From contig DKCG01000026.1 in assembly GCA_002449145.1 (NCBI GenBank), forward strand, positions 82,608-146,607: a stretch of 64,000 bases of DNA, given 5' to 3'. A program made the translations under genes and the position numbers. The notes under the pieces are model-generated. The model ran no database searches, was not told the origin of the DNA, and worked only from the letters and a program-made list of their open reading frames with translations. Shown here one piece after another: positions 5,925 to 54,292 of this stretch; within the stretch, counting starts at the first letter, position 1, and each line of letters begins with the position of its first letter. The DNA comes from Christensenella sp. UBA6880 (GTDB taxonomy: Bacteria; Bacillota; Clostridia; Christensenellales; CAG-917).

Positions 5925-5978
5925 TAATTAATAATTAATAATGAATAATTAATAATTGCGGGCGGGACACCCGCACCC
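5925..5978 (+). repeat. repeat module A, copy 1 (AT-rich all-frame-stop tract plus GC hairpin)
   Basis: The sequence AATTAATAATTAATAATGAATAATTAATAATTGCGGGCGGGACACCCGCACCC recurs at 34943-34997 and in shorter form at 53953-53983. Confidence 0.8.
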
Positions 5979-6002
5979 GAAACGAACACTCATTCGAAGC
6001 CT

Positions 6003-6530
6003 ACTTATACACGGAATGTGCAAATTCGCAGACGGAACACGAGCCGCAAGGCGGCGAGCCTATGAGCGCCGAACTTTCGTCACGCACAAGCCCTTTTGCT
6101 TCAACCGCAACAAGTTGTAGTTGTTCGCCTTTGTGCTTTGCGTTCCTCGTCCCACACGCCAAAAACTACGCTTTCATCATATTACTCAAACATAAGTTCG
6201 CTTGTTTTTGACGTGCGGGAACCCTTGTGCGTGTAGTACAAGCGACTGCGCCGTCTGTTGGCCACTGCCTGGCGCACAAAGCGCAGTGGCATAATGAGTG
6301 AAATGTCCCTATCTATGTGAGTGCCGTAAGGAACACAGTGACGGAATAGCGATTGTTACGAAGTCAATCGCGTCCTGCCCCCTCTTGCGAACGATGTAAA
6401 GTTTTGCAGAGAACTGGCGCAAGTTTGAGCAATAGGGGAAAGCCCGAAGGGAAGGGGTGACGTGTAATTTTAGAGTTCACGCCGTCAAACTTTTGTAGAG
6501 GAAGAACATTCCCCGTGAGGAAGGGGGAAG
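6003..6530 (+). repeat. repeat module T1, expanded copy (two nested insertions plus a tail ending in GTGAGGAAGGGGGAAG)
   Basis: Near-identical to 48915-49165 over the shared blocks, and interrupted at about 6078-6234 and 6326-6377. The tail at 6465-6530 ends with the T2-type purine terminus. Confidence 0.85.
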
Positions 6531-20858: not shown

Positions 20859-20863
20859 AGCGC

Positions 20864-21068
20864 GCTATTTGGCGAATAACTTTGGACGCGATTGACGCAA
20901 GCGTAACAATCGCTATTCCGTCACTTCGTTCCTTACAACGCCCTTTTGTTCACCCGTCACGTACGATTTAGTACGTTGGGCGGGTTCGCAAAAGGGCGTT
21001 TCCTTGTTCTTCATCTCAATAGTGCGCTTTAATGCAATTTGATGTCACTCATTCAAGGCGTACTTATC
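20864..21068 (+). repeat. composite repeat locus: 17-mer, rc52 block, H-type long hairpin, TTCTTCATCTCAATA box and x-block
   Basis: 20864-20880 equals 48888-48904. 20884-20936 is the reverse complement of 6326-6375. Arms 20937-20948 and 20989-21000 form a 12-bp stem. 21044-21068 resembles 5988-6010. Confidence 0.8.
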
Positions 21069-22478: not shown

Positions 22479-23318
22479 ATGAAATTCAAGGTTAATCCTC
22501 TTTTTTTCGCGCTTGCCCTTGCGCTTATCGCGTTCGGACACGCGCTTGATTTCGTATGGACTATGCTTGCTTTGCTCTTTCACGAAAGCGCACACGCGCT
22601 TATGGCGAGGGCAAGGGGATACGTCGTAAAAAAAATGGTGCTTTTGCCGTACGGGGCAATGATGAGCGCGGGCGAAAACTTCGACAAAACGTCGAGCGTG
22701 CTTATAGGTCTTGCAGGGCCTTTGTGCAATCTTTTGCTTGCGCTCGTCACGCTCGGTCTTTGGTGGTTGTTTCCGTCGGTGTACCCTTATACGATTTTTT
22801 TTCTTTACGCAAATCTGTCGCTCGGCTTGTTCAATCTCTTGCCCGTGTATCCGCTCGACGGTTCGAGGGTGGTTCTCGGTTTTTGCAAAAACAAGATTAA
22901 GGCGGTCAAGGGTTTGCAAATCGCGGGCATAGTTTGCTCTTTTTTGTTTTTGGGACTTTTCGTCGGCTCGTTCTTTTTCGGGCTCAATTTCACGTTCGGC
23001 ATAATGGCGGTGTTTCTCTTTTACGGCGCGACGTTCTTGGGCAAGGACGAAACCTATTCGAGCGTGCTTGACGTGACGTGCAAAAACTATTCTTTGGGCG
23101 TTGAACTCAAACGCGTGGAAATATCTTGCGATACGCCCATACTCAGATTGTTCCATTACGTCGGCAGACAAAGCAAAACGACGTTCGACGTCGTAGGCGA
23201 GGACGGAAAGATAATTCGCACCTTATCCGAGCAGGATTTGAAAGCGATTGCTGTGAAAAATAAACTTACTACGATGTTAGGCGAAACGTTGAAAACTAAA
23301 ACTGGCAATAATGTTTAA
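22479..23318 (+). CDS. site-2 (M50) metalloprotease, SpoIVFB-like
   Basis: HESAHAL (HExxH) and NLLPVYPLDGSRV motifs. It lies downstream of min genes, as spoIVFB does in Bacillus. Confidence 0.8.
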   Translation: MKFKVNPLFFALALALIAFGHALDFVWTMLALLFHESAHALMARARGYVVKKMVLLPYGAMMSAGENFDKTSSVLIGLAGPLCNLLLALVTLGLWWLFPSVYPYTIFFLYANLSLGLFNLLPVYPLDGSRVVLGFCKNKIKAVKGLQIAGIVCSFLFLGLFVGSFFFGLNFTFGIMAVFLFYGATFLGKDETYSSVLDVTCKNYSLGVELKRVEISCDTPILRLFHYVGRQSKTTFDVVGEDGKIIRTLSEQDLKAIAVKNKLTTMLGETLKTKTGNNV

Positions 23319-23392
23319 ATAATTTCAATTTGATCTATGTTTGTGTACACAACAAATCAATATAGGACAATTTCAAACCATTTTTAATTGAA

Positions 23393-23599
23393 TTAGTCTT
23401 TTAATCCAAGAAAATAGTCTGCTGAGATAGAAAAAGCAAGACACATTTGCCTTAATATATCATATCCGGGCTTTGCTTTTCCTTTTAACCATTCGCTAAC
23501 TTGACTTTGCTTTACGCCTACTTCTCGTGCAAAGGCGGACTGTGTCAGATTATTGCGAATGAGAAAATCTCTTAATATGTCTGAAAAGTCATTATCCAT
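23393..23599 (-). CDS. XRE-family helix-turn-helix transcriptional regulator
   Basis: The 68-aa product contains LTQSAFAREVGVKQSQVSEWLKGKAKP, a classic Cro/C1 HTH. Confidence 0.85.
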   Translation of the reverse strand: MDNDFSDILRDFLIRNNLTQSAFAREVGVKQSQVSEWLKGKAKPGYDILRQMCLAFSISADYFLGLKD

Positions 23600-23608
23600 A
23601 TTTTTAGT

Positions 23609-23667
23609 ATATAGAATTTTCTATTACTATTCTTGACATATAGAATTTTCTATACTAACATTATAAT
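23609..23667. promoter_or_regulatory. divergent promoter region with two identical 16-nt operator-like sites
   Basis: ATATAGAATTTTCTAT occurs at 23609-23624 and 23638-23653, each containing the inverted repeat ATAGAA-TT-TTCTAT. TTGACA at 23633-23638 abuts the second site. Confidence 0.5.
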
Positions 23668-23700
23668 GTATTGTTCATAAGTCATTCGGAGTGTTGAAAA

Positions 23701-24096
23701 ATGTGTTGGTATGAGTATTTAATTAATGCTTTGGTAGGACTGGTTGTTGGTGTTTTATCAACTATAATTACGAGTTTTTTGATTGGTAGACGAATAAAAA
23801 ATCACGATGAGAAAAAATCAAAATTGATGCAAATATATTTGCAATTTCAAAAATATGAGCATTTGAAAATGTCGGATGTTACATTAACAGAACTTCAAGA
23901 TTTTATTTTAGAGGCAAAATCAGTTTTGTTTAGATATAAGAATATTAGAGATTCTTTTATCAAATATGAAATCGTCTTTAATGAGAATTTGCGACTTAAT
24001 AATGGTAATAATGTGCTTATCATTAATAGCGATGATAGCAATTATGTAAAGTTAAAAGCAGAAATGGAAAAATATTTTGGGATATATGAATATTAA
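23701..24096 (+). CDS. small single-pass membrane protein, unknown function
   Basis: N-terminal TM LINALVGLVVGVLSTIITSFLIG. AT-rich codon usage as in the neighbouring genes. Confidence 0.55.
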   Translation: MCWYEYLINALVGLVVGVLSTIITSFLIGRRIKNHDEKKSKLMQIYLQFQKYEHLKMSDVTLTELQDFILEAKSVLFRYKNIRDSFIKYEIVFNENLRLNNGNNVLIINSDDSNYVKLKAEMEKYFGIYEY

Positions 24097-24108
24097 CGGG
24101 AGAAACAT

Positions 24109-26817
24109 ATGAAAAGATTTAGATTGTTGGTAGTGTTATCACTATGCATATTGATTTGTTGCATATTGTGTGCTTGCAGTCCTAGCGATTCCGATTATGA
24201 TGACAGTAGTGTACAAAAATATAGTGTAACTTGGAAAAACTACGACGGCACGGTTCTGGAAAAAGATAGTGAAGTGGTATATGGAACAGTACCCGAATAT
24301 AACGGCATAACACCGACCAAACCGTCGACGGAACGCTATTCATATGCCTTCAACGGTTGGACACCGACAATCGTTCCTGTTACGGAAGATGTTGTTTATA
24401 CAGCGCAATTTGCCGAAACTACGAACACATATAGCGTAATCTGGGAAAATTATGACGGCACAATTTTAGAAAAAGATAATGAAGTGGCGTACGGAGAAGT
24501 GCCCGAATATAACGGCATAACACCGACCAAGCCATCAACAGGGCGGTATTCATACTCGTTCAACGGTTGGACACCGACAATTGTTCCCGTTACAAAAAAT
24601 GTTGTTTATACGGCACAATTCAACGAATCGACAAATACATATAGTGTAATCTGGAAGAATTATGACGGTACAATTTTAGAAAAAGATAACGAAGTGGCGT
24701 ACGGGGAAGTGCCCGAATATAACGGCATAACACCGACCAAACCGTCGACGGAACGTTATTCTTATGCGTTCAACGGTTGGACTCCGACAATTGTTCCTGT
24801 TACGGAAGATGTCGTTTATACGGCGCAGTTCGCAGAAACGATAAATACATATAGCGTAATTTGGAAGAATTATGACGGCACGATATTAGAAACTGATAAT
24901 GAAGTAGAATATGGGCTAATGCCCGAATATAACGGTGCGATGCCGATTAAGGGCGATGACGATATTTTCCGATATTCATTTATTGGCTGGGATAAAGAGA
25001 TTGCTCCTGTTGTGTCTGATATAATATATATTGCTCAGTTTTCCAGTGCATATAAAGAAGATTTTATATTTGAAACGGTTGGCAACAAATGTTTTTTAAA
25101 GAAATATGTTGGGGTAAACGAAAGCGTCGTTATTCCAAGTACATATCAAAACCATCCGGTTGTTTCGATTTTGTCAAATGCATTTGACAAAAAAGCGTGT
25201 GTAAAATCATTATACGTTCCTACCAGCGTTATTGAAATTCAGAAAAATGCTTTGAGCGGTTGTACAAATATAGAGCGGTTGATTCTTCCTTTTGTAGGCG
25301 ACGGCGCAGATATAGGATTTATCGGATATGTATTTGGCGCTGCAAATTATGAAGAAAACGCACAATGCGTTCCTTATTCGCTGTCATCAATAAGAATATA
25401 CAATGCGAATATTATTGCAAGTAACGCATTTTACGGTTGCAAATATTTAGAATATGTGGAAATTTCGGACGATATTACAAGTATCGGTGATGGTTGTTTG
25501 GCAGGTTGCGCGTCTCTTTCTAAAATGCGCTTGCCATTTGTCGGCGAATCATATAATAGCAAGAATTCATTTGGATATATATTTGGAACAAATAATTATT
25601 CTAATTCTCAAATCGTTTCACAAAACGGACAAATATTTTATATTCCGAATAGCCTTTCAGAAGTTGAAATTACAGGTGGATGTATATTGACAGGAGCGTT
25701 TGAAAATTGTGCTATGATTCAAAAAATAAGCATTGAACAAGGTGTTTCTATAATCGAGGAAGAATCCTTTGCAAATTGCAATTCGCTAAGAGAGATTTAT
25801 GTCGATTCGGCTGTGGAAATAAAAGCGTATGCATTTGCCAAATTGTGCAACCTTGAAAAAATAAAAGTGCCTATTCAGGATTATTCGTATAGCGATTCAG
25901 AATATTTGTGGACGTTATATCACATAGGTAGAATGTTTAATAAGGAAGAATATGGCGGATGCGATGCTATTACACAATCAAGTAAAGGAAAAGGAATAGG
26001 CAGTAATGCAGGCGTAGGTTCCGGCGGCGGAGGAACTTATTATATACCGACATCGTTAAAAGAAATTGTTGTAGATTGTAAAAACGATATTTTGGGTTAT
26101 GGGGCGTTAAGCGGTATTGCAAACGTTGAATTTGTTATTAACAATTGCACGGGCATCGCAGAGTATTCGTTGTCTCGAACGAGCATCAAAACATTTATCA
26201 TTCCGAAAGGATTGACAGAAATTCCAGAAGGCGCATTCAGTGAATGCGAGTTGTTGGAAAGTATAGTCATTCCTTATGGAGTGACTACAATACAAAATAA
26301 CGCTTTTAGGGGATGTATTTCATTGAAAACAATTGTTGTCCCTAAAACGTTATCAGGAATAGGTGAGCTAAGTTTTAGTGGTTGTAAATCGTTAGAAAAT
26401 ATAGATTTTATCAGAAACTGCGCAGAAGAATTTGTTATCGGAAGAAATGCATTTATTGAATGTACTGGGTTAAAAAAGTTGATTATTCCGAGCAATGTTT
26501 GTTCGATATATTATGGTGCTTTTGGCAACTGTTCGGAAATAAGCTCTGTTACTTTTGAGGACGGTTCAACTTGCGCATATATCGGCGGAGCTGCTTTTCA
26601 CGATTGTACAAAACTTGAATATGTAGTTATTCCTTCAAGTGCATTGACATTGGGAGAAAGTGTGTTTTCTGGTGACACATCATTAATTATATATGCAGAA
26701 TTTAATGAAAAACCATCAAGATGGGGTAATTATTGGAATAAGGATAACAATGCGGTTTATTGGTTATCAGAATGGAAATACGACGAATCGGGTTTTCCTT
26801 GTCCCAATAATGATTAG
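24109..26817 (+). CDS. surface lipoprotein with four 70-aa Listeria-Bacteroides-type B repeats and BspA-type leucine-rich repeats
   Basis: Lipobox LCAC-S. Repeats have the form YSVxWxNYDGTxLE...NGWTP...VYTAQF. LRR_5-like units such as IPxGVTTIQNNAFRGCISLKTIVVP follow. Confidence 0.8.
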   Translation: MKRFRLLVVLSLCILICCILCACSPSDSDYDDSSVQKYSVTWKNYDGTVLEKDSEVVYGTVPEYNGITPTKPSTERYSYAFNGWTPTIVPVTEDVVYTAQFAETTNTYSVIWENYDGTILEKDNEVAYGEVPEYNGITPTKPSTGRYSYSFNGWTPTIVPVTKNVVYTAQFNESTNTYSVIWKNYDGTILEKDNEVAYGEVPEYNGITPTKPSTERYSYAFNGWTPTIVPVTEDVVYTAQFAETINTYSVIWKNYDGTILETDNEVEYGLMPEYNGAMPIKGDDDIFRYSFIGWDKEIAPVVSDIIYIAQFSSAYKEDFIFETVGNKCFLKKYVGVNESVVIPSTYQNHPVVSILSNAFDKKACVKSLYVPTSVIEIQKNALSGCTNIERLILPFVGDGADIGFIGYVFGAANYEENAQCVPYSLSSIRIYNANIIASNAFYGCKYLEYVEISDDITSIGDGCLAGCASLSKMRLPFVGESYNSKNSFGYIFGTNNYSNSQIVSQNGQIFYIPNSLSEVEITGGCILTGAFENCAMIQKISIEQGVSIIEEESFANCNSLREIYVDSAVEIKAYAFAKLCNLEKIKVPIQDYSYSDSEYLWTLYHIGRMFNKEEYGGCDAITQSSKGKGIGSNAGVGSGGGGTYYIPTSLKEIVVDCKNDILGYGALSGIANVEFVINNCTGIAEYSLSRTSIKTFIIPKGLTEIPEGAFSECELLESIVIPYGVTTIQNNAFRGCISLKTIVVPKTLSGIGELSFSGCKSLENIDFIRNCAEEFVIGRNAFIECTGLKKLIIPSNVCSIYYGAFGNCSEISSVTFEDGSTCAYIGGAAFHDCTKLEYVVIPSSALTLGESVFSGDTSLIIYAEFNEKPSRWGNYWNKDNNAVYWLSEWKYDESGFPCPNND
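24220..25059 (+). repeat. in-frame 210-bp tandem repeat x4 inside the lipoprotein gene
   Basis: Units lie at 24220, 24430, 24640 and 24850. Units 1 and 3 are nearly identical at the protein level, and unit 4 has diverged. Confidence 0.85.
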
Positions 26818-26883
26818 ATTTAGCAGAGTGGTTGTGTGGTTAAGCGGTCGTTGCAGATAATGGCTTGACCGTTGGAGATAAGC

Positions 26884-26939
26884 AAATCAAAGAATCCGCG
26901 CAGAAATAAACAATATTTTATGCGTGGATTCTTTGATTT
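26884..26939 (+). terminator. long hairpin, putative terminator of the island operon
   Basis: A 17-bp stem AAATCAAAGAATCCGCG / CGTGGATTCTTTGATTT contains one G-U pair and encloses a 22-nt loop. Confidence 0.45.
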
Positions 26940-26970
26940 ATGATGCACATTAGTATGGAAGTTATAAAAG

Positions 26971-26999
26971 TTGACATTTCATTTTATATATCTTAAAAT
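26971..26999 (+). promoter_or_regulatory. candidate promoter of the glucokinase gene
   Basis: TTGACA (26971-26976), a 17-nt spacer, then TAAAAT (26994-26999). Confidence 0.5.
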
Positions 27000-27030: not shown

Positions 27031-27975
27031 ATGAAATACGTTGGCATTGACATCGGCGGTATGACCATAAAGGGCGGTATCGTTGACGAAAAGGGCAATA
27101 TCCTTGCAAGAAAAGTCGTCGTTACGTCCCCCGGTAAAGAGGATTATCTCATCGTGCAAGACATCGCAAACCTCATCGAGGATTTGACGAAAGACTGCAA
27201 AGACGAAATCGAGGGCATCGGCATAGGTTGCCCCGGTTCTATTTACGACGAAAAAGGCATCGTGCGCTATGCGTGCAACATCAATTTCCGCAACACCCCT
27301 ATGGCGAAAATGATTGCCGAAAAAACGCAGATTAAAAACGTAAAACTTTCAAACGACGCAAACTGCGCCGCACTCGGCGAAACGCTTTTCGGCGCGGGCG
27401 AGGGCGCGAAAAATTCCGTTATGGTTACGCTCGGCACGGGCGTAGGCACGGGCATAATCGCCGACGGCAGACTTATCACGGGCAATCGCTCGGCAGGTGC
27501 GGAAGGCGGACATATAACGATAAATCTCGGCGGCGCGACTTGCGGTTGCGGAAAGAAAGGTTGTTTCGAGGCGTACGCTTCGGCAACCGCGCTTATGAAT
27601 CAAATTCAATCCGCTTGCGAAAAGCACCCCGACAGTTTGCTTGCAAAAGAAGTCGAGGAAAACGGCAACAGCGGCAAAATCGTGTTTGATTGTGCAAAAG
27701 AAGGGGATAAAGTGGCGATTGCGGTTGTCAAACGCTACATCAAGTACGTCGGCATAGGTCTTGTCAACTACGCCAACATCTTTGCGCCCGAAGTCATAAT
27801 CATCGGCGGCGGAATCTCGAATCAAGGCGACAACATCATCAAGCCTTTGCAAAGATACGTTTCGAGAAACAAGTACGGCGCGGAATATACGCCCAAAGTC
27901 AAGGTCGTTGCGGCAACTCTCAAAAACGACGCAGGTATAATCGGGGCGGCCGCGCTGTGCATAAACCGTTGCTAA
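27031..27975 (+). CDS. glcK: ROK-family glucokinase
   Basis: IGIDIGGMTIKGG N-terminus, and the ROK zinc motif GGHITINLGGATCGCGKKGCFE. Confidence 0.85.
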   Translation: MKYVGIDIGGMTIKGGIVDEKGNILARKVVVTSPGKEDYLIVQDIANLIEDLTKDCKDEIEGIGIGCPGSIYDEKGIVRYACNINFRNTPMAKMIAEKTQIKNVKLSNDANCAALGETLFGAGEGAKNSVMVTLGTGVGTGIIADGRLITGNRSAGAEGGHITINLGGATCGCGKKGCFEAYASATALMNQIQSACEKHPDSLLAKEVEENGNSGKIVFDCAKEGDKVAIAVVKRYIKYVGIGLVNYANIFAPEVIIIGGGISNQGDNIIKPLQRYVSRNKYGAEYTPKVKVVAATLKNDAGIIGAAALCINRC

Positions 27976-28028
27976 GGCAACGGCAACACGCAAGCGTGCG
28001 TATTGCCGAGAGCCTTGCTAGGTTTCTG

Positions 28029-28264
28029 CACTACTAACCGCGCAAGCCCTCTTTACTCTCAAAATAAGACGGACAAAAACTCAAACCGCAATTCCGTGCG
28101 AGTGCTTGCTTGGTGGGTGCGCACTTCGTGCGCAAGCGGTAAATTTGAACGGCGGTTGGGCGCGACGCGTCAAACAATACATTCGGTGAATGTGTTGTAG
28201 CCAAAGCGAACGAGGCGGATTGCCTCGCAAACGCCGAAGTCCAAACACGTGAGGAAAGGGGAAG
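28029..28264 (+). repeat. repeat module T2, copy 1
   Basis: Aligns with 37726-37958 and 54056-54292. The 3' ~125 nt are nearly identical, and it ends GTGAGGAAAGGGGAAG. Confidence 0.85.
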
Positions 28265-33426: not shown

Positions 33427-34965
33427 ATGAGAGAAGATTCAACAAAACTTAAACGCGCATTTTCCTTTGCGCAAGAGGGTATACGCAAATTTGCGTACAC
33501 CGATTTGTATATTTTGCTCGTTCTTGCAATAGTCGTGGCGGCGTGGATTTGGCAAAACGCAACGTTCGGTTTTGTCACGCTCATTCTCGTATCGTGTGCC
33601 GTTTTGGTGTTCTCGGACGATATTTTGCCGCTTTCGGTCAACGCTTTCGGCGCAATGCTTATGATTTTCAAAGCCGATGGCGAAGGTGCTATTGACATAA
33701 GCAGATTCTTTTATCTTTGGCCGACATTCATTCCGCTTGCCGTCGCAATTTTGATTTTCGTGGTCAGAAACACCGTCGCAAAAGTCAAAAACAAGCAGCG
33801 TTTCGTGCTCGGAAAGATGTTCTTTCCGCAAGTCGCGGTCAGCGCCGCGCTCTTGCTCGGCGGCGTGGGAACTATCGCGGCAAAGAATTATCTCACCGCG
33901 CTTCCCAACGTCATTGCGCTCGGCGTAGGCGTGCTTGCCGTGTATCTGCTCTTTGCAAACTTCATAAAAATCGACGAAAAAAGAGACTATGCAAAGTACT
34001 TTGCAAAGGTCGTTATGTGGATAGGCTTTGCCGTGTGCGTCGAAATGATTGTGCATATATCCCGCCTCGACATCAGTTCGCAAGACTGGTCTAAATGGTA
34101 CTGGGATTTAGGGTGGGGCAACCGCAACAATATCGCAACGTTCCTGCTCTTTTCCGCGCCTATGGCGATGTATTTGTCGACGAGGACGAGAAAAGGCTGG
34201 GCATACATCGTTATGGCGTTGTTCCAATACGCTTGCCTCGTTATGACCTTGTCGAGAGGCGGCATACTGTTCGGCGCGATTGCGGCGGTATTCGGCGTAG
34301 TTTTCTCGATTTTGAAAGCACCCAACCGCAAAACGCAAGCAACGATATGGGGCGTTGCAATCCTTGCCGCGCTTGTGATTTGCCTCGTAAAACTCGACCT
34401 CGTCAAAGGCATTATTTCGAGCCTTGCTGACAGAATAGACGCAGGCGGAAACGGCGACGTAACGTCGGGCAGATTCGCTCTTTACAAAGAGGCGTGGGAA
34501 CAGTTCGTAAAGCACCCGATTTTCGGCGCGGGTATGGGCTTTATCGGCACTCGCGACGGTCAGTTCCATTCGGAAAATATGAGCCAGTACTGGTTCCACT
34601 CGACGCTTTTCCAAGTGCTCGGCTGTATGGGTATCGTCGGTATAGCCGCTTACGTTTACTACTACGTCGTCCGCTTCGGAATCGTGTTCAAGGGTATGAA
34701 AAAGAATTGCAAATTCGCCTTTTTCGTGTTCGTTGCGTGGCTTGGATTCGAGGGCTATTCTATGATAGACACCGGTACTATGATTCCGTTCCCGAATATG
34801 ATGTTGGTTGCGGTTATGTCCTATATAGCGCAACTTGCCAACTTGCAAAGAAGCGAGAGCGAAATCGACGGCGTTCCGAACTCTCTACTCAACGAGGTAT
34901 ACGTGCGAGATACCGGAATCGACGTAGTGAGAGTTGATGCTAAATTAATAATTAATAATGAATAA
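33427..34965 (+). CDS. O-antigen ligase/polymerase (Wzy_C) family membrane protein
   Basis: Polytopic protein. The LSRGGILFGAIAA loop region and the periplasmic-type loop with FHSENMSQYWFHS are typical of this family. The last codons lie inside repeat module A. Confidence 0.75.
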   Translation: MREDSTKLKRAFSFAQEGIRKFAYTDLYILLVLAIVVAAWIWQNATFGFVTLILVSCAVLVFSDDILPLSVNAFGAMLMIFKADGEGAIDISRFFYLWPTFIPLAVAILIFVVRNTVAKVKNKQRFVLGKMFFPQVAVSAALLLGGVGTIAAKNYLTALPNVIALGVGVLAVYLLFANFIKIDEKRDYAKYFAKVVMWIGFAVCVEMIVHISRLDISSQDWSKWYWDLGWGNRNNIATFLLFSAPMAMYLSTRTRKGWAYIVMALFQYACLVMTLSRGGILFGAIAAVFGVVFSILKAPNRKTQATIWGVAILAALVICLVKLDLVKGIISSLADRIDAGGNGDVTSGRFALYKEAWEQFVKHPIFGAGMGFIGTRDGQFHSENMSQYWFHSTLFQVLGCMGIVGIAAYVYYYVVRFGIVFKGMKKNCKFAFFVFVAWLGFEGYSMIDTGTMIPFPNMMLVAVMSYIAQLANLQRSESEIDGVPNSLLNEVYVRDTGIDVVRVDAKLIINNE

Positions 34966-34997
34966 TTAATAATTGCGGGTGGGGTAAACCCCACACC
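34943..34997 (+). repeat. repeat module A, copy 2
   Basis: The sequence is AATTAATAATTAATAATGAATAATTAATAATTGCGGGTGGGGTAAACCCCACACC. It supplies the C-terminal ...LIINNE and the stop of the upstream CDS. Confidence 0.8.
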
Positions 34998-35023
34998 TCA
35001 ATCTAATTACAACACAAGATATG

Positions 35024-36069: not shown

Positions 36070-37677
36070 ATGAAAGACAAAAAGACGGAAAAAAGAGGCA
36101 TATTTTCGGGTTTACGCAAAGAGTTTTGCGCTTCCGATACGAAAAAGCACGACGAGGCGAGCCTCGCCGAGTTGCTTTGCGAGCACGACAAAAACAAAAT
36201 CGTGCCTTTTCATATGCCGGGGCATAAACGCGAGGATTTCGATTTTCTAAACGGCGCGCAAAAAATCGACATAACCGAGATAGAGGGCTTCGACAATCTC
36301 AACGACGCAAACGGAATCATATTGCAATCCGAAAAACTTGCGGCAGAGGTGTTCGGCGCAAAGCACGCAAGATTTTTGGTGAACGGAAGCACGGGCGGCG
36401 TTCTGGCGGCGATTCGTACGGTTTGCAATGCGGGCGACAAGGTTTTGATTGCTCGCAACTGTCATAAGTCCGTGTACAATGCGGTGGAAGTGTTCGGCTT
36501 GGTTCCCGTCTACGTTATGCCGTCCTATTTCGAGGAATACGGCTTTTACGGCTCGGTTTTCCCTTGTGACGTAAAAAGAGCGTTCGAGCAAAATCCCGAC
36601 ATAAAACTCGTGGTGATAACTTCGCCCACGTACGAGGGAATCGTCAGCGACGTAAAATCAATCGCGGATATATGCCGCAAAAACGGCGCGATTTTGTTCG
36701 TCGACGAGGCGCACGGCGCACATACCGGACTTTACAAAAAGTTCGGCGAAAGCGCGAGAAGTCTCGGCGCGGACATGGTTGTGAACAGTTTGCACAAGAC
36801 GTTGCCGTCGCTTACGCAAACCGCGCTTTTGTGCGTTTGCTCGGATAGAGTGGACACAACCGAACTCGACCGCAATCTTGCGATATTCCAAACCAGTTCG
36901 CCCTCGTACGTCCTTATGGCTTCCATCGACGGTTGCGTGAGAATGCTCAAAAACGACGGCGCGAAATTGCTGTCCGAGTGGAACAAGAATATCGACGATT
37001 GCAAAAAGTCGCTTGAAAGACTAAACAAACTTTCGATTTTCCAACCGAAAAAAGATTCGCGAGTTTTTGCCTACGACAAGTCGAAATTCGTCGTGCTATG
37101 CACGGGCGGCGCAATAAGCGGCATTGAACTCAAAAAGGTTTTGCGAAACGCATACGACATAGAACTCGAAATGGCAAGCGTAAACTACGCAATCGCAATG
37201 AGCGGCGCAGGGGATACCAAAGAGAATTTTTCCGCCCTCGAAAGCGCGTTGTTTGCAATCGACGACACGCTTGCTTCACGCAACGGTTTGACTACGACGG
37301 TTTTGCCGTCATTGCCGAAAAAGGCGTTTGAACCCTATCAAACACGCACTTTAAGTGGCGAATACGTCGATTTCGACAAATCGTCGGGCAGAGTAAGTCT
37401 TGAAAACGTATGGGTATATCCGCCCGGCTCGCCCGTCATCGTCAAAGGCGAAGAAGTGTGTCAGGAAGATATAAAAAATCTTACTTTGATGTACGAAAGC
37501 GGCGTAAGCGTATCGAGCGAAAAGCGAGAATTTCCGACATACCTTTATGTCGCAAAAGCCTGTAACGAAGACGGAACACGAGCCGCAACGGCGGCGAGCC
37601 ATTGCTCAAACAGCGTTGCGGCAAAGTCAATCGCCCAAGTCGTCATTCCGAGCGAAGCGTGGGAATCCCCTAAATAG
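36070..37677 (+). CDS. PLP-dependent Orn/Lys/Arg decarboxylase family protein, with the last ~36 aa encoded by repeat DNA
   Basis: FHMPGHK and SLHKTLPS (PLP-Lys) motifs. From about nt 37569 onward the frame runs through the T1-type repeat sequence. Confidence 0.8.
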   Translation: MKDKKTEKRGIFSGLRKEFCASDTKKHDEASLAELLCEHDKNKIVPFHMPGHKREDFDFLNGAQKIDITEIEGFDNLNDANGIILQSEKLAAEVFGAKHARFLVNGSTGGVLAAIRTVCNAGDKVLIARNCHKSVYNAVEVFGLVPVYVMPSYFEEYGFYGSVFPCDVKRAFEQNPDIKLVVITSPTYEGIVSDVKSIADICRKNGAILFVDEAHGAHTGLYKKFGESARSLGADMVVNSLHKTLPSLTQTALLCVCSDRVDTTELDRNLAIFQTSSPSYVLMASIDGCVRMLKNDGAKLLSEWNKNIDDCKKSLERLNKLSIFQPKKDSRVFAYDKSKFVVLCTGGAISGIELKKVLRNAYDIELEMASVNYAIAMSGAGDTKENFSALESALFAIDDTLASRNGLTTTVLPSLPKKAFEPYQTRTLSGEYVDFDKSSGRVSLENVWVYPPGSPVIVKGEEVCQEDIKNLTLMYESGVSVSSEKREFPTYLYVAKACNEDGTRAATAASHCSNSVAAKSIAQVVIPSEAWESPK

Positions 37678-37958
37678 AAACGAAAACTTTTTGGCGATTG
37701 ATAACAACCGCACTTGTTTTCGCAAGCACTAACCGCGCAGAGAATTTGAGCTATCAGTTCAAGCACGGATAAGAACTCAAACCGCAATTTCGCCAAATTA
37801 TCTGCTTGGTGCAGCGCACTTCGTGCGAAAGCGGTAAATTTGAACGGCGGTAGGGCGCGACGCGTTAAACAACACATCCAGTGAATGTGTTGTAGCCAAA
37901 GCGAACGAGGCGGATTGCCTTGCAAACGCCGAAGTCCAAACACGTGAGGAAGGGGGAA
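37569..37958 (+). repeat. composite repeat: T1 5' fragment, hairpin block (GTCATTCCGAGCGAAGCGTGGGAATC) and T2 copy 2 (37726-37958)
   Basis: 37570-37600 matches the T1 5' block, and 37726-37958 aligns with the other T2 copies. Confidence 0.85.
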
Positions 37959-37971
37959 ATGTGTTAAGTTC

Positions 37972-38000
37972 TTGACAAAGCCGATACAAAACAATATAAT
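37972..38000 (+). promoter_or_regulatory. candidate promoter of the SCIFF operon
   Basis: TTGACA (37972-37977), a 17-nt spacer, then TATAAT (37995-38000). GAAGGAG is the SD before the ATG at 38031. Confidence 0.6.
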
Positions 38001-38030: not shown

Positions 38031-38177
38031 ATGAAAAGAATCACAACTTTGAAAACACGCGATCTCAACGAGAGCAAAAAGAACGGCGGCTGTGGCGAAT
38101 GCCAAACCTCTTGCCAATCTGCTTGCAAAACTTCCTGCGGCGTTGCAAACCAAAAGTGCGAAAAGGCTGCAAAGTAA
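38031..38177 (+). CDS. SCIFF (six-cysteine) ranthipeptide precursor, 48 aa
   Basis: MKRITTLKTRDLNESKKNGGCGECQTSCQSACKTSCGVANQKCEKAAK. It is not in the ORF track because it is shorter than 60 aa. It has a strong SD and lies directly upstream of the maturase. Confidence 0.9.
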   Translation: MKRITTLKTRDLNESKKNGGCGECQTSCQSACKTSCGVANQKCEKAAK

Positions 38178-38210
38178 TTTTTGGCAAAATCACAACTTAT
38201 TCGCAAAGAT

Positions 38211-38236
38211 CGCATAGGCTGTCCTATGCGTTTTTT
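38211..38236 (+). terminator. intra-operon attenuator/terminator hairpin after the precursor gene
   Basis: Stem CGCATAGG / CCTATGCG with loop CTGT, followed by TTTTTT. Confidence 0.65.
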
Positions 38237-38302
38237 GTGTAAAAACGCAAGCGTTGCGACGTTTCGATTTTATAGCGAGCGGCAACGCGAGAGATAAGAC
38301 AA

Positions 38303-39682
38303 ATGATTCATTCTTTCAAACTTAACGGATACAATATCGTGCTCGATACGGCAAGCGGAAGCGTGCATAGCGTGGACGACGTAGCGTACGACGTCATAAA
38401 CTCGTACGAGGACAAAAGCAAAGAGCAAATCGTCAAAGACGTGGTTGCAAAGTACGAAAACCAAGGCGTTTGCGAGCAGGACGTAATCGAGTGCATAGAC
38501 GATGTAGAGGAATTGAAGGCGCAAGGCAAACTCTTTTCCGAAGACACGTTCAAGCCCGACGTCGACGTTCTTGCAAAACGCAATACCGTGCTTAAAGCGA
38601 TGTGCTTGCACGTTGCGCACACTTGCAACCTCAACTGCGAATATTGTTTCGCATCGCAAGGCAAATATCACGGCGAGCGCGCGCTTATGTCGTACGAAGT
38701 GGGCAAACGCGCTCTCGATTTCCTCGTCGAAAACAGCGGAACGCGCCGCAATCTCGAAGTGGACTTCTTCGGCGGCGAACCGCTTATGAACTGGCAGGTT
38801 GTCAAAGACCTCGTGGCATACGCTCGTTCGATAGAGAAAGAGCACGGCAAAAACTTCCGCTTTACGCTCACGACCAACGGTATGCTCGTTGACGACGACG
38901 TAATCGAATTTGCCAACAAGGAAATGGACAACGTCGTTTTGTCTCTCGACGGCAGAAAAGAGATAAACGACCATTTCAGACACACCATAGGCGGCGTGGG
39001 AAGTTACGATATAATCGTGCCGAAATTCCAAAAATTCGTCAAAGCGAGAGGCGGAAAAAACTACTATATGCGCGGCACGTTTACGCACAGAAATCCCGAC
39101 TTCACGAAGGATATTCAAACTATGCTCGACCTCGGCTTCGACGAGTTGAGTATGGAACCCGTCGTATGTCCGCCCACCGACAAGTACGCGCTCGACGAGG
39201 ACGACAAAAAGGTCATCTTCAAAGAGTACGAAAAACTTGCCGATATGATGATTGAAAGAAGAAAGCAGGGCAAACCCTTCACGTTCTATCACTATATGCT
39301 CAACCTCGAAGGCGGTCCGTGCATATACAAGCGTATATCTGGCTGCGGAAGCGGCACGGAATATCTCGCCGTAACGCCCACCGGCGAACTCTATCCTTGC
39401 CATCAGTTCGTCGGCAACAAAGAGTATCTTATGGGCGATATATGGAAGGGCGTCACGAACACGGAAATTCAATCCAAGTTCAAAAAGTGCAACGCATATT
39501 CGAGAAAAGAGTGCGACGAGTGCTGGGCAAGGCTGTATTGCTCGGGCGGTTGCGCGGCGAACGCATACAACGCCACGGGCGACGTGAACGGCGTTTACAA
39601 GTACGGTTGCGACCTTTTCAAAAAGCGTATCGAATGTGCGATAATGCTCAAAGTGGACGAGCAACTCGGTGAGGAAGAATAA
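38303..39682 (+). CDS. SCIFF radical SAM/SPASM thioether-forming maturase
   Basis: CNLNCEYCF radical-SAM motif and C-terminal SPASM cysteines (CDECWARLYCSGGCAANA). It is adjacent to the SCIFF precursor. Confidence 0.9.
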   Translation: MIHSFKLNGYNIVLDTASGSVHSVDDVAYDVINSYEDKSKEQIVKDVVAKYENQGVCEQDVIECIDDVEELKAQGKLFSEDTFKPDVDVLAKRNTVLKAMCLHVAHTCNLNCEYCFASQGKYHGERALMSYEVGKRALDFLVENSGTRRNLEVDFFGGEPLMNWQVVKDLVAYARSIEKEHGKNFRFTLTTNGMLVDDDVIEFANKEMDNVVLSLDGRKEINDHFRHTIGGVGSYDIIVPKFQKFVKARGGKNYYMRGTFTHRNPDFTKDIQTMLDLGFDELSMEPVVCPPTDKYALDEDDKKVIFKEYEKLADMMIERRKQGKPFTFYHYMLNLEGGPCIYKRISGCGSGTEYLAVTPTGELYPCHQFVGNKEYLMGDIWKGVTNTEIQSKFKKCNAYSRKECDECWARLYCSGGCAANAYNATGDVNGVYKYGCDLFKKRIECAIMLKVDEQLGEEE

Positions 39683-43310: not shown

Positions 43311-43570
43311 ACTTATAAACGGAATGTGCTAATTCGCAGACGGAACGCGAGCCGCAAGGCGGCGAGGAAGCGAGCGTCGAGCTTGACGGATAGTACAAGT
43401 GAACGGGCGAGTGTGGATTTTTTCGCCCGTGAACGAGTGGCATAACAAGAGAACGATACTTTTCTATGCGAGCACCGAGTGTTGCCCCACGCAGAGCGGA
43501 CGCCGTGGGTTCCCTCAAAGTATGCAGAGGGGGAACGGCGGTAGGGGAAACACGTGAGGAAGGGGGAAAG
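43311..43570 (+). repeat. repeat module T1, diverged copy ending in the T2-type terminus
   Basis: It shares ACTTATAAACGGAATGTGC..GCAGACGGAAC.CGAGCCGCAAGGCGGCGAG and GAGAACGATACTTTTCTATG with the other T1 copies, and ends CACGTGAGGAAGGGGGAAAG. Confidence 0.8.
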
Positions 43571-46086: not shown

Positions 46087-48903
46087 ATGAGTATCGACAA
46101 AATTTACATCAAAGGCGCGAGGGAAAACAACCTCAAAAACATCGACCTAGAAATACCGCGCGACAAACTCGTCGTGTTCACGGGATTGAGCGGAAGCGGC
46201 AAATCGTCGCTTGCGTTCGACACCATTTTTGCGGAAGGACAAAGACGTTACGTCGAAAGCCTTTCCAGTTACGCGCGTATGTTCCTCGGTCAAATGCAAA
46301 AACCCGACGTGGACTACATCGAAGGTCTTTCCCCCGCCGTTTCAATCGACCAAAAAACGACCTCGCACAACCCTCGCTCGACCGTGGGTACGGTGACGGA
46401 AATTTACGACTATTTTCGCTTGCTGTTTGCAAGAATCGGCACGCCGCATTGCCCCAAGTGCGGACGTGAAATCGAACGTCAAACGGTTGACCAAATCTGC
46501 GACAAGATTATGGAAAGAGAGGGCTCAAAACTTCAACTTCTCGCACCCGTCGTGAGAGGTAGAAAGGGCGAGTACCGCAAGGAACTCGAACAATTCAAGC
46601 GCGCGGGCTACGTCCGCGTAAGGGTGGACGGGGTGAACTACACCCTCGACGAGGAAATAAAACTCGACAAAAACGTCAAGCACAACATAAGCGTGGTTAT
46701 CGACAGAATCGTGGTTAAGGACGGTTCGCAACGCCGCATATCCGATGCAATCGAAAACGCGATAAAACTGTCCGAAGGGCTTGTGATTGCCGACTTCGAC
46801 GGCGAAGAAGTGCTTTATTCCACGAAGTACGCTTGCCCCGATTGCGATTTGAGTTTCGAGGAACTCACGCCGAGGTTGTTCTCGTTCAACAATCCGTACG
46901 GCGCGTGTCCCGAATGCGGCGGACTCGGATTCCGCAACGAAATCGACGTAAATCTGCTCGTCACCGACTGGAACAAATCCCTCAGAGAGGGCGCGATAAA
47001 GGTAAGCGGCTGGGACGCGGGACATATGTCGCAAATGCAGTTCAGGGCGCTTTCGCAAGCGTACGGATTTTCTCTCGATACGCCGATTAAAGACTTGCCG
47101 CAAAATATCCTCGACATCATCTTTTACGGCAACGACGGCGACCGTATTCCTATGGAATACAACTCGCGCACGTTCAGTGGTTTCTACAAGGCGAGTTACG
47201 AGGGCGTTGCGAGAAACCTTATGCGCCGATTCAACGAAACGGACAGCGAACTCATAAAGAACGAGATTTCCAAGTATATGAAAGAAGTGCCTTGCTCCAA
47301 GTGCGGCGGAAAGAGGCTCAAACCCGAAGCCCTCGCAGTCACGATTGCGGGCAAGAATATATACGAACTCACCGAGATGTCCATATCGAAACTCAAAGAC
47401 TTTATGCAGTCTCTTACGCTCACCGACACGCAACATCTTATTGCGGACAGAATTATCAAAGAGATTTGCGCAAGGCTCGACTTTTTGATTAACGTAGGAC
47501 TGGATTATCTAACTCTTTCGCGTTCGGCAACCACTTTGAGCGGCGGCGAGTCGCAACGAATCCGCCTTGCAACCCAAATCGGAAGCGGACTTACGGGCGT
47601 TTTGTACATTCTCGACGAGCCGAGCATAGGCTTGCACCAAAAGGATAATCAACGCCTTTTGCAATCCCTCAAAAATTTGCGCGATATAGGCAACACTCTC
47701 ATCGTCGTCGAACACGACGAGGAAACCATACGCAGTGCGGATTATATCGTCGATATAGGCCCGGGCGCGGGCGTACACGGCGGCAACGTCGTTGCGCGCG
47801 GTAGCGTCGAGGACGTCATAAAGAGCAAGGACAGCATAACGGGCAAGTATCTGAGCGGCGAACTCTCGATACCCGTTCCCATTGCAAGACGCTCGTCAAA
47901 CGGCAAGTCAATCGTCATAAAGGGCGCAAGACAAAACAACCTCAAAAACGTTGACGTCGAGATTCCGCTCGGCGTATTCAACTGCGTAACGGGCGTGTCG
48001 GGCAGCGGCAAATCCTCGCTCGTCAACGAAGTGCTTTATCCCGCGCTTTCAAACGCGCTTATGCGCTCGAACGTCAAACAAGGCAACTACGACAGTATCG
48101 AGGGCATCGAAAACGTGGACAAGGTCATTTGCATAGACCAAAGCCCGATAGGCAAAACGCCTCGCTCGAACCCCGCAACGTATACGGGCGTTTTCGGCGA
48201 TATTAGGGAACTGTTCGCAACCCTTCCCGATTCCAAAGCGAGAGGCTACACCGCGGGCAGATTTTCCTTCAACGTCAACGGCGGCAGATGCGAGCATTGC
48301 GGCGGCGACGGCATAATCAAAATCGAAATGCACTTCCTTCCCGACGTGTACGTTCCTTGCGAAGTCTGCAAGGGTGCAAGATACAACCGCGAAACCCTCG
48401 AAGTGCGCTACAAAGGCAAAAATATCAGCGACGTGCTCGATATGACAATCGAGGAAGCCACCGAGTTCTTTGCCAACATACCCAAAATCAAAAACAAAAT
48501 CAAAACCCTCAACGACGTCGGTCTCGGCTACGTCAAACTCGGTCAGTCCTCAACCACTTTGAGCGGCGGCGAAGCGCAACGCGTCAAACTCGCAACCGAA
48601 CTTTCTCGCCGTTCCACCGGCAAAACCGTCTATATCCTCGACGAACCGACGACCGGACTTCACACCCACGACGTTGCCAAACTCATCACCATTCTCGACC
48701 GTCTCGTCGAGCAAGGCAACACCGTCGTCGTTATCGAGCATAATCTCGACGTCGTCAAAGTTGCCGACAACATCATCGACCTCGGACCCGACGGCGGCGA
48801 CCGCGGCGGAACGATAGTCGCGCAAGGAACACCGGAAGAGGTTGCACTTGTGGCTCGTTCATACACCGGTCAATTCCTTAAAACCGTGCTATTTGGCGAA
48901 TAA
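46087..48903 (+). CDS. uvrA: excinuclease ABC subunit A
   Basis: [23 protein letters not shown], two ABC modules ([16 protein letters not shown]) and zinc-finger cysteines. Confidence 0.95.
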
Positions 48904-49165
48904 CTGCGTCAATAAATGTGCGTATTAGCAGACGGAACACGAGCCGCAAGGCGGCGAGCCTATGAGCGCCGAACTTGACGGACAGTACAAGCGACTGCGC
49001 CGTCTGTTGGCCACTGCCTGGCGCACAAAGCGCAGTGGCATAATGAGAGAACGATACTTTTCTATGTGAGTGCCGACTTCCCCTCTTGCGAACGATGTGC
49101 AATATTGTAGAAAATTGGCGTAGGTTTGAGCAATAGGGGAAAGCCCGAAGGGAAGGGGTGATGTG
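48888..49165 (+). repeat. 17-mer left block (48888-48904, containing the uvrA stop) plus compact repeat module T1 (48915-49165)
   Basis: GCTATTTGGCGAATAAC is identical to 20864-20880. The T1 body is near-identical to the shared blocks of 6003-6464. Confidence 0.85.
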
Positions 49166-49229
49166 TTTTTTTTGGGTACACGATGAACACTCGTGTATAA
49201 AAAGAAACGAATATGAAGAGGGTAACTCT

Positions 49230-53914: not shown

Positions 53915-53947
53915 AAAAATCCTCGCAAACTTGCGAGGATTTTTTTT
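53913..53947 (+). terminator. rho-independent terminator of the ABC operon
   Basis: Stem TCCTCGCAA / TTGCGAGGA followed by TTTTTTTT. Confidence 0.75.
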
Positions 53948-53952
53948 CAGTG

Positions 53953-54292
53953 AATTAATAATTAATAATTTAGGGCGGGGCACAAGCAAAAATCATCGCA
54001 GAGGTGATGACAATGCACATAAATGTGAATTGTCAAAACCTCGCTTGATTTATTGCTCTACTAACCGCGCAGAGAATTTGTGCTATCAATTCAAGTACGG
54101 ATAAAAACTCACGCCACAATTTCGCCAAATTATCTGCTTGGTAAAAGCGTGCTATGCACGCAAGCGGTAAATTTGAACGGCGGTTGGGCGCGACGCGTTA
54201 AACAACACATTCGGTGAATGTGTTGTAGCCAAAGCGAACGAGGCGGATTGCCTCGCAAACGCCGAAGTCCAAACACGTGAGGAAGGGGGAAG
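53953..54292 (+). repeat. repeat module A (short copy, 53953-53983), spacer, and repeat module T2 copy 3 (54056-54292)
   Basis: AATTAATAATTAATAATTTAGGGCGGGGCAC, then a T2 body aligning with 28029-28264 and 37726-37958. Confidence 0.85.

Follow-up and report, generated by a model that had tools for sequence, protein, structure and literature searches.

A candidate family of modular, structured interspersed repeats in gut Clostridia

The repeat T2, present in a 64,000-nt stretch of DNA (hereafter the window), is on balance probably one form of a high-copy, non-autonomous and modular family of interspersed repeats, which would fold on the + strand and would mostly be co-transcribed as part of 3' UTRs. 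T2 itself is a composite, made of module A (about 110 nt) followed by module B (about 120 nt) and a purine tail. In the DNA sampled, copies of the family exchange modules, show covarying helices and a biased orientation and are turned over between relatives, and neither a promoter nor a partner gene was found with them.

Modular composition of T2 and related elements

T2 had been described, in a sequence-only reading of the window, as a three-copy repeat confined to the + strand. This was confirmed by nhmmer and alignment, which placed the copies at 28030-28264, 37727-37958 and 54057-54292 (E values 1e-80 to 1e-84), with pairwise identities of 83-91%. The 20-mer GCGGTAAATTTGAACGGCGG, invariant in T2, occurs three times in the window versus zero expected occurrences. 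At the 3' side the boundary is sharp, similarity stopping at ...GGGGAA, so that the proposed end in a purine block holds, apart from one mismatch to the quoted block in copy 1 (GTGAGGAAAGGGGAA). The 5' boundary, which had been set at ACTAACC (T2 starts with CTAACCGCGCA), was misplaced, since 25-60 nt farther upstream are common to other copies.

The alignment of the three copies alone hid two separable modules. Module A extends from CTAACCGCGCAG to GCAAGCGG, and module B from GAACGGCGG up to the tail. Searches with nhmmer recovered A without B, B without A, and AB, and tandem arrays of two or three A units were found in the loci L135, L128, L111, L041 and L071. The view of T2 as a discrete unit of about 235 nt has thus to be abandoned, its modules also occurring alone, in tandem and in other combinations. 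Module B corresponds to the usual 3' end of the family, GAACGGCGGTAGGGG followed by AAACACGTGAGGAAGGGGGAA, with a core of about 92 nt inserted at the junction of these two sequences.

The canonical unit of the family measures about 260 nt and consists of a conserved head and the invariant tail CACGTGAGGAAGGGGGAA. The T2 tail is also the end of the repeats at 6003-6529 and 43311-43569. The head, AATGTGCnAATTCGCAGACGGAACACGAGCCGCAAGGCGGCGAG, is common to the 6-kb, 43-kb and 48.9-kb members of the window and is also found at 37566, 160 nt upstream of T2 copy 2. Distances from head to tail peak at 220-250 nt and reach at most 707 nt within an element. Head-only canonical elements (H) were the most numerous with 58 instances, followed by A (15), HAB (9), AA (8), B (7), AB (6) and AH (6), besides rarer architectures. 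In the window and the sampled loci, no protein-coding version of the element was seen and no head-to-tail pair encloses a gene. The alternative offered by the earlier reading, a multi-copy ncRNA or the end of an element, is retained in part: T2 is multi-copy and structured and its 3' part (B and tail) is the end of a larger family, while the ncRNA gene is not upheld. The members found in the window are listed in Table 1.

Further sequences accompany these elements. A conserved hairpin module, TTTAGAGTWCACGCCGTYCAACTCTTGTAGAGGAMGAAC, follows many canonical tails and is also present at 6466-6510 of the window, which indicates that the family comprises more modules than the four named. The AT-rich block AATTAATAATTAATAATGAATAATTAATAATT with its GC hairpin resembles a terminator when read on the - strand.

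Table 1. Family members and associated modules in the window.
Feature	Position	Strand	Description
Hairpin module and linker	27974..28033	+	GGCAACGGCAACACGCAAGCGTGCGTATTGCC and linker; 5' of A at this site, as in the L135 tandem A arrays
Module A, T2 copy 1	28034..28142	+	Long covarying stem, conserved CTGCTTGGTG, small hairpin (nhmmer, alignment A3 and pair counts)
Module B, T2 copy 1	28143..28264	+	Junction closed by CGGCG/CGCCG, three hairpins, purine tail GTGAGGAAAGGGGAA
Head and spacer stem module	37566..37728	+	Head GACGGAACACGAGCCGCAACGGCGGCGAG; spacer ATTGCTCAAAC..GCGTTGCGG ... CCGCACTTGTTTTCGCAAG; upstream of T2 copy 2
Module A, T2 copy 2	37729..37837	+	
Module B and tail, T2 copy 2	37838..37958	+	
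Common 5' linker and module A, T2 copy 3	54037-54060 (linker), 54061-54170 (A)	+	Kept in syntenic L105
Module B and tail, T2 copy 3	54171..54292	+	Missing from the syntenic L105 site, which has unrelated AT-rich DNA instead
Canonical unit, about 260 nt	43311..43569	+	Head ... tail without A and B; GAACGGCGGTAGGGG and tail in common with T2
Enlarged member	5975..6529	+	Leader, head, inserted extra modules, alternative then canonical tail; between two - strand genes; inverted family unit at the same site in L028
Member with alternative tail	48903..49182	+	Head and alternative tail GGGAAGGGGTGATGTG; begins at the uvrA stop codon
AT-rich block and GC hairpin module	5926..5979; also 34943-34998, 53939-53990	+	AATTAATAATTAATAATGAATAATTAATAATT-GCGGGCGGGACACCCGCACCC; often 5' of family members

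Covariation within the fold

The fold was studied on an alignment of 54 copies of module A (A3) and on one of 37 distinct copies of the canonical unit (A5). In A3, the long stem of module A comprises 14 pairs, 9 of them with double changes, and 87% of the cells are paired. Sliding the partners lowered this proportion to 29-45%. The covariation score of 0.287 was reached by none of 500 shuffles, shuffled alignments scoring 0.14 and slid ones at most 0.10. At least five sequences of the stem were distinguished: AGAATTTGTGC/GCCAAATTATC, AGAATCTTTGC/GCAAGATTATC, GCCCTCTTTAC/GTGCGAGTGCT, CCACTCTTCTC/GAGCGAGTGCT and CGTGCGTGTGC/GCACGCACGAT. The small hairpin of A covaries as well, and the stretches CTATCA, ACGGA and CTGCTTGGTG, lying between the A helices, are invariant. 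The exchange of the hairpin TGCGCAC..GTGCGCA for GCGTGC..GCACGC, reported earlier among the T2 copies, is real and lies in their 5' half. A helix P0 (ACCGC/GCGGT) enclosing module A was dropped, only 63% of its cells being paired, with 0 compensatory changes.

At least six helices of the canonical unit include pairs with covariation in 95-100% of the copies (columns 42-53, 66-177, 69-175, 99-132, 102-127, 186-250, 203-242 and 217-230). Two of these helices are long-range, joining columns 66-70 with 173-177 and columns 186-189 with 247-250. An RNAalifold pairing of the tail with columns 66-80 was discarded, since covariation pairs columns 66-70 with 173-177.

Module B contains the two hairpins that had been noticed in the 3' half of T2, CAACACATTC/GAATGTGTTG and CGAGGC/GCCTCG. 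Its four helices are 93% paired and its sequence is nearly invariant across unrelated loci, so that covariation is uninformative in B. Only one variation is systematic: in CGAGGC/GCCTCG, one strand changes from C to U, so that pairing persists as G-U. The compensatory changes announced from three copies are borne out by further copies in module A, which carries all the double compensatory changes of T2, B having none. Taken together, compensatory double substitutions beyond the controls, a generic criterion for structured RNA, are present in module A and in the canonical unit.

An A-N-GGA motif is invariant in every module (alignments A3, A4 and A5), outside the helices or in a hairpin loop. 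Its instances are GACGGAAC and GACGGATAG in the head unit, ACGGAYAAAA in A, the GGATT loop in B and GAGGAAGG in the tail. These motifs resemble CsrA-type binding sites.

Strand, transcription and gene context

Consensus folding energies were equal for both strands and were therefore uninformative for the choice of the strand. Wobble cells are likewise symmetric in module A (50 G-U versus 52 A-C), and these two results together leave room for a structure formed by single-stranded DNA. In module B, G21-U31 is present in 29/29 copies, two pairs of helix 4 show G-U in 16/29 and 11/29 copies, and A-C is almost absent. The canonical unit has an invariant U-G within the UUCCCUC/GAGGGGGAA helix. The C-to-T changes T28178 and T37921 both give G-U pairs on the + strand, as had been pointed out. 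The argument drawn from them in favour of the + strand extends to B and to the canonical unit and fails for A.

Among the A copies without B, about 8 of 45 end in a + strand GC hairpin followed by a U-run and may represent terminators. A hairpin followed by a U tract is absent from the three T2 copies and from the canonical units. According to simple gene calls made in this analysis, 86 elements point the same way as the gene 5' of them and 35 do not (about 71% co-oriented), the ratio being 45:12 for A and 23:4 for B; about 29% of the elements are anti-oriented to the upstream gene. Many elements begin 0-60 nt from the upstream stop codon, and a terminator-like hairpin separates stop codon and element in only 24 of 86 cases. 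No sigma-70-like promoter was seen upstream of the T2 copies or of the 43-kb unit. Taken together, the G-U pairs, the terminators, the orientation bias and the promoter search favour a + strand RNA that would be produced by read-through.

The neighbours of the elements in the window are housekeeping genes (uvrA, uvrB, holA, a ROK kinase, mreB, the SCIFF peptide and its maturase). Downstream of T2 come unrelated genes, for a radical SAM enzyme, SCIFF and HolA respectively. SCIFF and holA have good promoters in the interval that separates the T2 tail from the gene; that of SCIFF is a perfect TTGACA-17-TATAAT (37972-38000). The SCIFF gene encodes a six-cysteine peptide of 48 amino acids, an identical peptide being present in many gut metagenomes, and it is accompanied by a radical SAM/SPASM maturase, the two genes lying within 38031-39682.

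Two other features of the window were recorded. An ORF of 1459 amino acids with a strong coding signal (6620-10999, - strand) had no Pfam match at E<=1e-5, and a short intergenic array of units of about 31 nt (ACGAGTTAATTTGCATAACGAGCAAATCTGC), with spacings of 17 and 31 nt, lies at 492-587.

Abundance and host range

Self-comparison of the window revealed at least 6 family members in 64 kb, all on the + strand, that is roughly one element per 10 kb. More than 150 elements were counted in 135 gut-metagenome and genome loci, and profile searches of 1.16 Mb collected 54 distinct copies of the 5' half of T2 (A) and 29 of the 3' half (B). By extrapolation, each genome would contain hundreds of copies. 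Many metagenome contigs end inside an element, as expected of a high-copy repeat.

When 185,579 species-representative genomes were scanned for the exact core 20-mer of T2, true T2 copies were found in only two uncultured Clostridia-type genomes, at three loci; two other matches were the bare 20-mer. A metagenome scan using the tail as query gave at least 120 loci, nearly all gut-derived as judged by contig names. Viral contigs, a plasmid collection and a phage collection contained no match to the family. In the proposed explanation, the host range is limited to one narrow lineage of uncultured gut Clostridia.

No match to Rfam 15 was obtained at gathering thresholds over the whole window, in agreement with the earlier reading, which could not assign T2 to a familiar RNA family. 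At E<=10, copy 3 and the 6-kb and 43-kb members gave only chance-level snoRNA and miRNA matches, plus generic terminator-like matches outside the elements. A literature search with exact family sequences retrieved no match. As far as checked, the family is previously undescribed.

Turnover between relatives and search for an insertion signature

At orthologous sites of genomes that are 90-96% identical, elements were replaced, lost or inverted. The SCIFF intergenic site, which is about 100 nt long and family-free in seven more distant relatives, holds a forward head-spacer-A-B element in the window; in L010 and L013 it is occupied by a canonical unit and in L009 by a composite, all of them reversed. 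Next to it, the stop codon of the decarboxylase (Orn/Lys/Arg) ORF at 36070-37677 has been replaced by the element, whose head and spacer module add 38 codons; the protein has 535 amino acids in the window versus 494-497 in relatives, that of L013 ending in ...VAKV before its stop codon.

Locus L105 is syntenic to the 41-56 kb region of the window and 94-96% identical to it. At the site of copy 3 it contains A without B, with unrelated DNA replacing B and 50 nt; at 43.3 kb the head unit gives way to B with two tails, and at 48.9 kb the sequence is a different one. In L028, the whole unit at the 6-kb site, from the AT-rich block to beyond the tail, is in the opposite orientation to the enlarged member of the window, and AT-rich inverted repeats are found at its flanks. 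Two inverted copies of the AT-rich block flank this inverted element. Opposite orientations between relatives were found at three orthologous sites in all.

Signatures of insertion were looked for at several levels. The head (ACTTATAAACGGAATGTGC...GACGGAAC) shows no reverse complementarity to the tail CACGTGAGGAAGGGGGAA, so the two do not form terminal inverted repeats, and no direct repeats indicative of a target-site duplication were detected at the flanks of the 37 canonical units. Among the sampled loci no clean filled-versus-empty pair was found for the family, the differences being replacements. Chaining of indels was tried as a way to filled and empty sites and gave only another MITE family and indels outside the family. 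Clustering of 937 proteins from the window and the loci revealed no neighbour protein recurring in differing contexts. The turnover between relatives suggests that the family may be mobile.

The second, unrelated MITE-like family has terminal inverted repeats (GCGCTATTGAGCGAATAAC ... CATCTCAATAGCGC) and is represented in the window at 20866-21050. Its filled and empty sites are clean between metagenomes (L022 597-737 versus L081; L023 4112-4208 versus L099). Within its window copy, 20884-20936 is an inverted copy of 6326-6375, inside the 6-kb element, and the 3'-terminal codons of uvrA together with its stop (GTGCTATTTGGCGAATAA, 48886-48910) match the terminal repeat of this MITE-like family, the same string being present after mreB (20862-20880). 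A segment of 3.7 kb (23284-26971) contains an ORF of 131 amino acids and a BspA-type leucine-rich-repeat protein of 902 amino acids with three 210-nt tandem repeats (24219-24935). This segment is missing in the 97%-identical L005 (1337-1738), which has a canonical repeat unit there.

Proposed explanation and alternatives

We propose that each module is a self-contained stem-loop domain; the modules are joined in many orders. The fold would be selected on one strand, most likely as + strand RNA. Since the elements are without a promoter of their own, their transcription would come mostly from read-through of the upstream gene with which they are co-oriented, making them a structured 3' UTR; some A copies probably end in an intrinsic terminator. 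The effect on the host would be incidental: a folded mRNA 3' end could impede exonucleases or reduce read-through. The invariant head and tail might act as handles for a trans-acting machinery or for ectopic recombination, leading to spread and reshuffling of the modules. Against this explanation speak the anti-orientation of about 29% of the elements to their upstream gene and the conservation of B, head and tail, which goes far beyond the need of a neutral parasite and may reflect a specific function or partner.

It seems rather unlikely to us that the elements are independent genes for small or medium ncRNAs acting in trans, such as protein sponges or RNAs that base-pair through the tail or the ACGGA/GGA motifs. 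Such genes would account for the complex covarying fold, for the invariance of the single-stranded CTGCTTGGTG, ACGGA and tail, and for the terminators after some A copies. The tail was also found to pair with a typical anti-Shine-Dalgarno at -15 kcal/mol; however, 6% of shuffles reach this energy, and Shine-Dalgarno-like pairing was rejected as not significant. The hundreds of copies extrapolated per genome and the turnover and inversion of copies at orthologous loci argue against this interpretation, as does the lack of a promoter-like site upstream of the copies checked, for which reason T2 does not appear to be the stand-alone ncRNA gene suggested at first.

The modular repeat is unlikely to represent a mobile structured RNA of a new, autonomous-looking class, for instance a retroelement resembling SINEs, a ribozyme or an orphan guide-RNA scaffold. 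A nuclease or reverse transcriptase encoded at an unlinked site would act on the scaffold in trans, and the invariant head and the purine tail would be recognition or catalytic parts.

A function at the DNA level is decidedly unlikely in our opinion. The elements would then be sites of recombination or inversion, or sites for nucleoid or topoisomerase-type proteins as in the case of BIMEs, with the hairpins extruded as cruciforms or formed by single-stranded DNA. Both strands fold equally well, elements stand in opposite orientation at orthologous sites, AT-rich inverted repeats surround the L028 unit and the palindromes CACGTG and ACGCGT are invariant; known BIMEs bind IHF and gyrase (PMC3184786). 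Against this, the orientation bias, the strand-specific G-U pairs and the terminators are hard to explain for a double-stranded site, and covarying helices 100 nt apart are unlikely as cruciforms.

We consider it very improbable that the elements are PATE-like miniatures of an HUH/RNA-guided transposon of the IS200/IS605 type, the head being the left end and the tail the right end, the 3' part an omega-RNA-like scaffold and the flanking DNA the guide. The asymmetric ends devoid of TIR or TSD, the sharp 3' boundary at GGGGAA, the unit size of about 260 nt and the multi-helix fold agree with this model. There is also the precedent of HEARO and IS605-orfB, multi-copy structured RNAs which were once orphans and later proved to be guide RNAs. 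However, the models of both in Rfam had no match, no conserved TAM-like motif precedes the elements on their 5' side, and the 3' flank is semi-conserved or runs into further modules. No tnpA, tnpB, iscB-like or other recurrent gene stands beside the more than 150 elements. The link to tnpB, iscB, tnpA or a reverse transcriptase gene, which the earlier reading had suggested looking for, was not found in the 135 loci, where no such neighbour recurs; a master copy may lie elsewhere in the genome. IS200/IS605 elements have a lagging-strand bias, whereas the heads are on the majority gene strand of their contig in 42 cases and opposite to it in 35, hence bear no relation to it. An element of this type had come into consideration because the six copies of the window lie exclusively on the + strand, and was dropped as the leading idea when the larger sample gave neither a link to the majority strand nor a partner gene.

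A cis-regulatory leader (riboswitch or attenuator) of the downstream gene is close to refuted. In its favour, each T2 copy precedes a + strand gene and B points the same way as the gene that follows in 35 of 47 cases, but these genes are unrelated, the SCIFF and holA promoters intervene, and the SCIFF site in relatives holds other elements, reversed elements or nothing.

Significance and comparison with known systems

To our knowledge, small interspersed repeats are described from a few well-studied pathogens and hardly from the uncultured Clostridia that are dominant in gut metagenomes. The family considered here breaks assemblies and extends or caps ORFs, and since it differs between 90-96%-identical genomes, it both marks and drives rearrangement at the strain level. 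For a passive repeat, such an elaborate fold and such invariant ends are unusual.

The BOX elements of Streptococcus pneumoniae, organised as boxA-boxB(n)-boxC, have been treated together with RUP and SPRITE, and RNA-seq showed their co-transcription with neighbouring genes (Croucher et al. 2011, PMC3049150). BOX and the modular repeat are alike in that modules may be absent, repeated or recombined, with sizes from less than 100 to about 700 nt. Both are high-copy, restricted to a narrow clade, intergenic, extensively folded, enriched downstream of genes and subject to turnover at orthologous sites. The co-transcription seen by RNA-seq for BOX would only be expected of the modular repeat. SPRITE and some A copies share a terminator-like character. 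In contrast, BOX and RUP have TIR, TSD and a link to an IS transposase, whereas the modular repeat has an unrelated head and tail and no TSD or transposase was seen with it. There is no sequence similarity to BOX, and the canonical fold is far more elaborate, with long-range covarying helices.

The bcr1 repeats of the Bacillus cereus group give rise to transcripts, and it is in the RNA that their structure is maintained (Delihas 2011, PMC3184786). The bcr repeats and the modular repeat are both interspersed Firmicute sequences of 150-300 nt in which compensatory changes keep the structure, and, as for bcr1, positions are not kept between close relatives. Maintenance at the RNA level is known for bcr1 and would be presumed for the modular repeat. 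The bcr1 repeat is a single cruciform-like unit with 5-bp direct repeats, whereas the modular repeat is a mosaic with invariant asymmetric ends and no detectable direct repeats.

Roles in mRNA stabilisation, attenuation and recombination have been proposed for BIMEs (PMC3184786). REP/BIME and the modular repeat are both mosaics of motifs, extragenic, without TIR or TSD and often located at gene 3' ends. REP units are simple palindromes of 20-40 bp mobilised by RAYT transposases, whereas the present modules are multi-helix structures of 100-260 nt beside which no RAYT-like gene was seen. Given the lack of sequence similarity, TIR and TSD, the elaborate fold and the invariant, asymmetric head and tail, the modular repeat belongs to none of BOX, bcr1 and BIME.

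The HEARO and IS605-orfB motifs, which are the omega RNAs of IscB and TnpB, adjoin or overlap their nuclease gene. They have in common with the modular repeat a multi-copy structured nature, sharp boundaries and a position at the end of a mobile element, but the modular repeat has no associated gene. Repeats of this general type are known, but in view of the structural complexity, the invariant ends and the lack of a partner there is a small probability that the family is a new kind of mobile RNA. In view of the HEARO and IS605-orfB precedent, the alignment and the model of the family constitute a starting point for a partner search.
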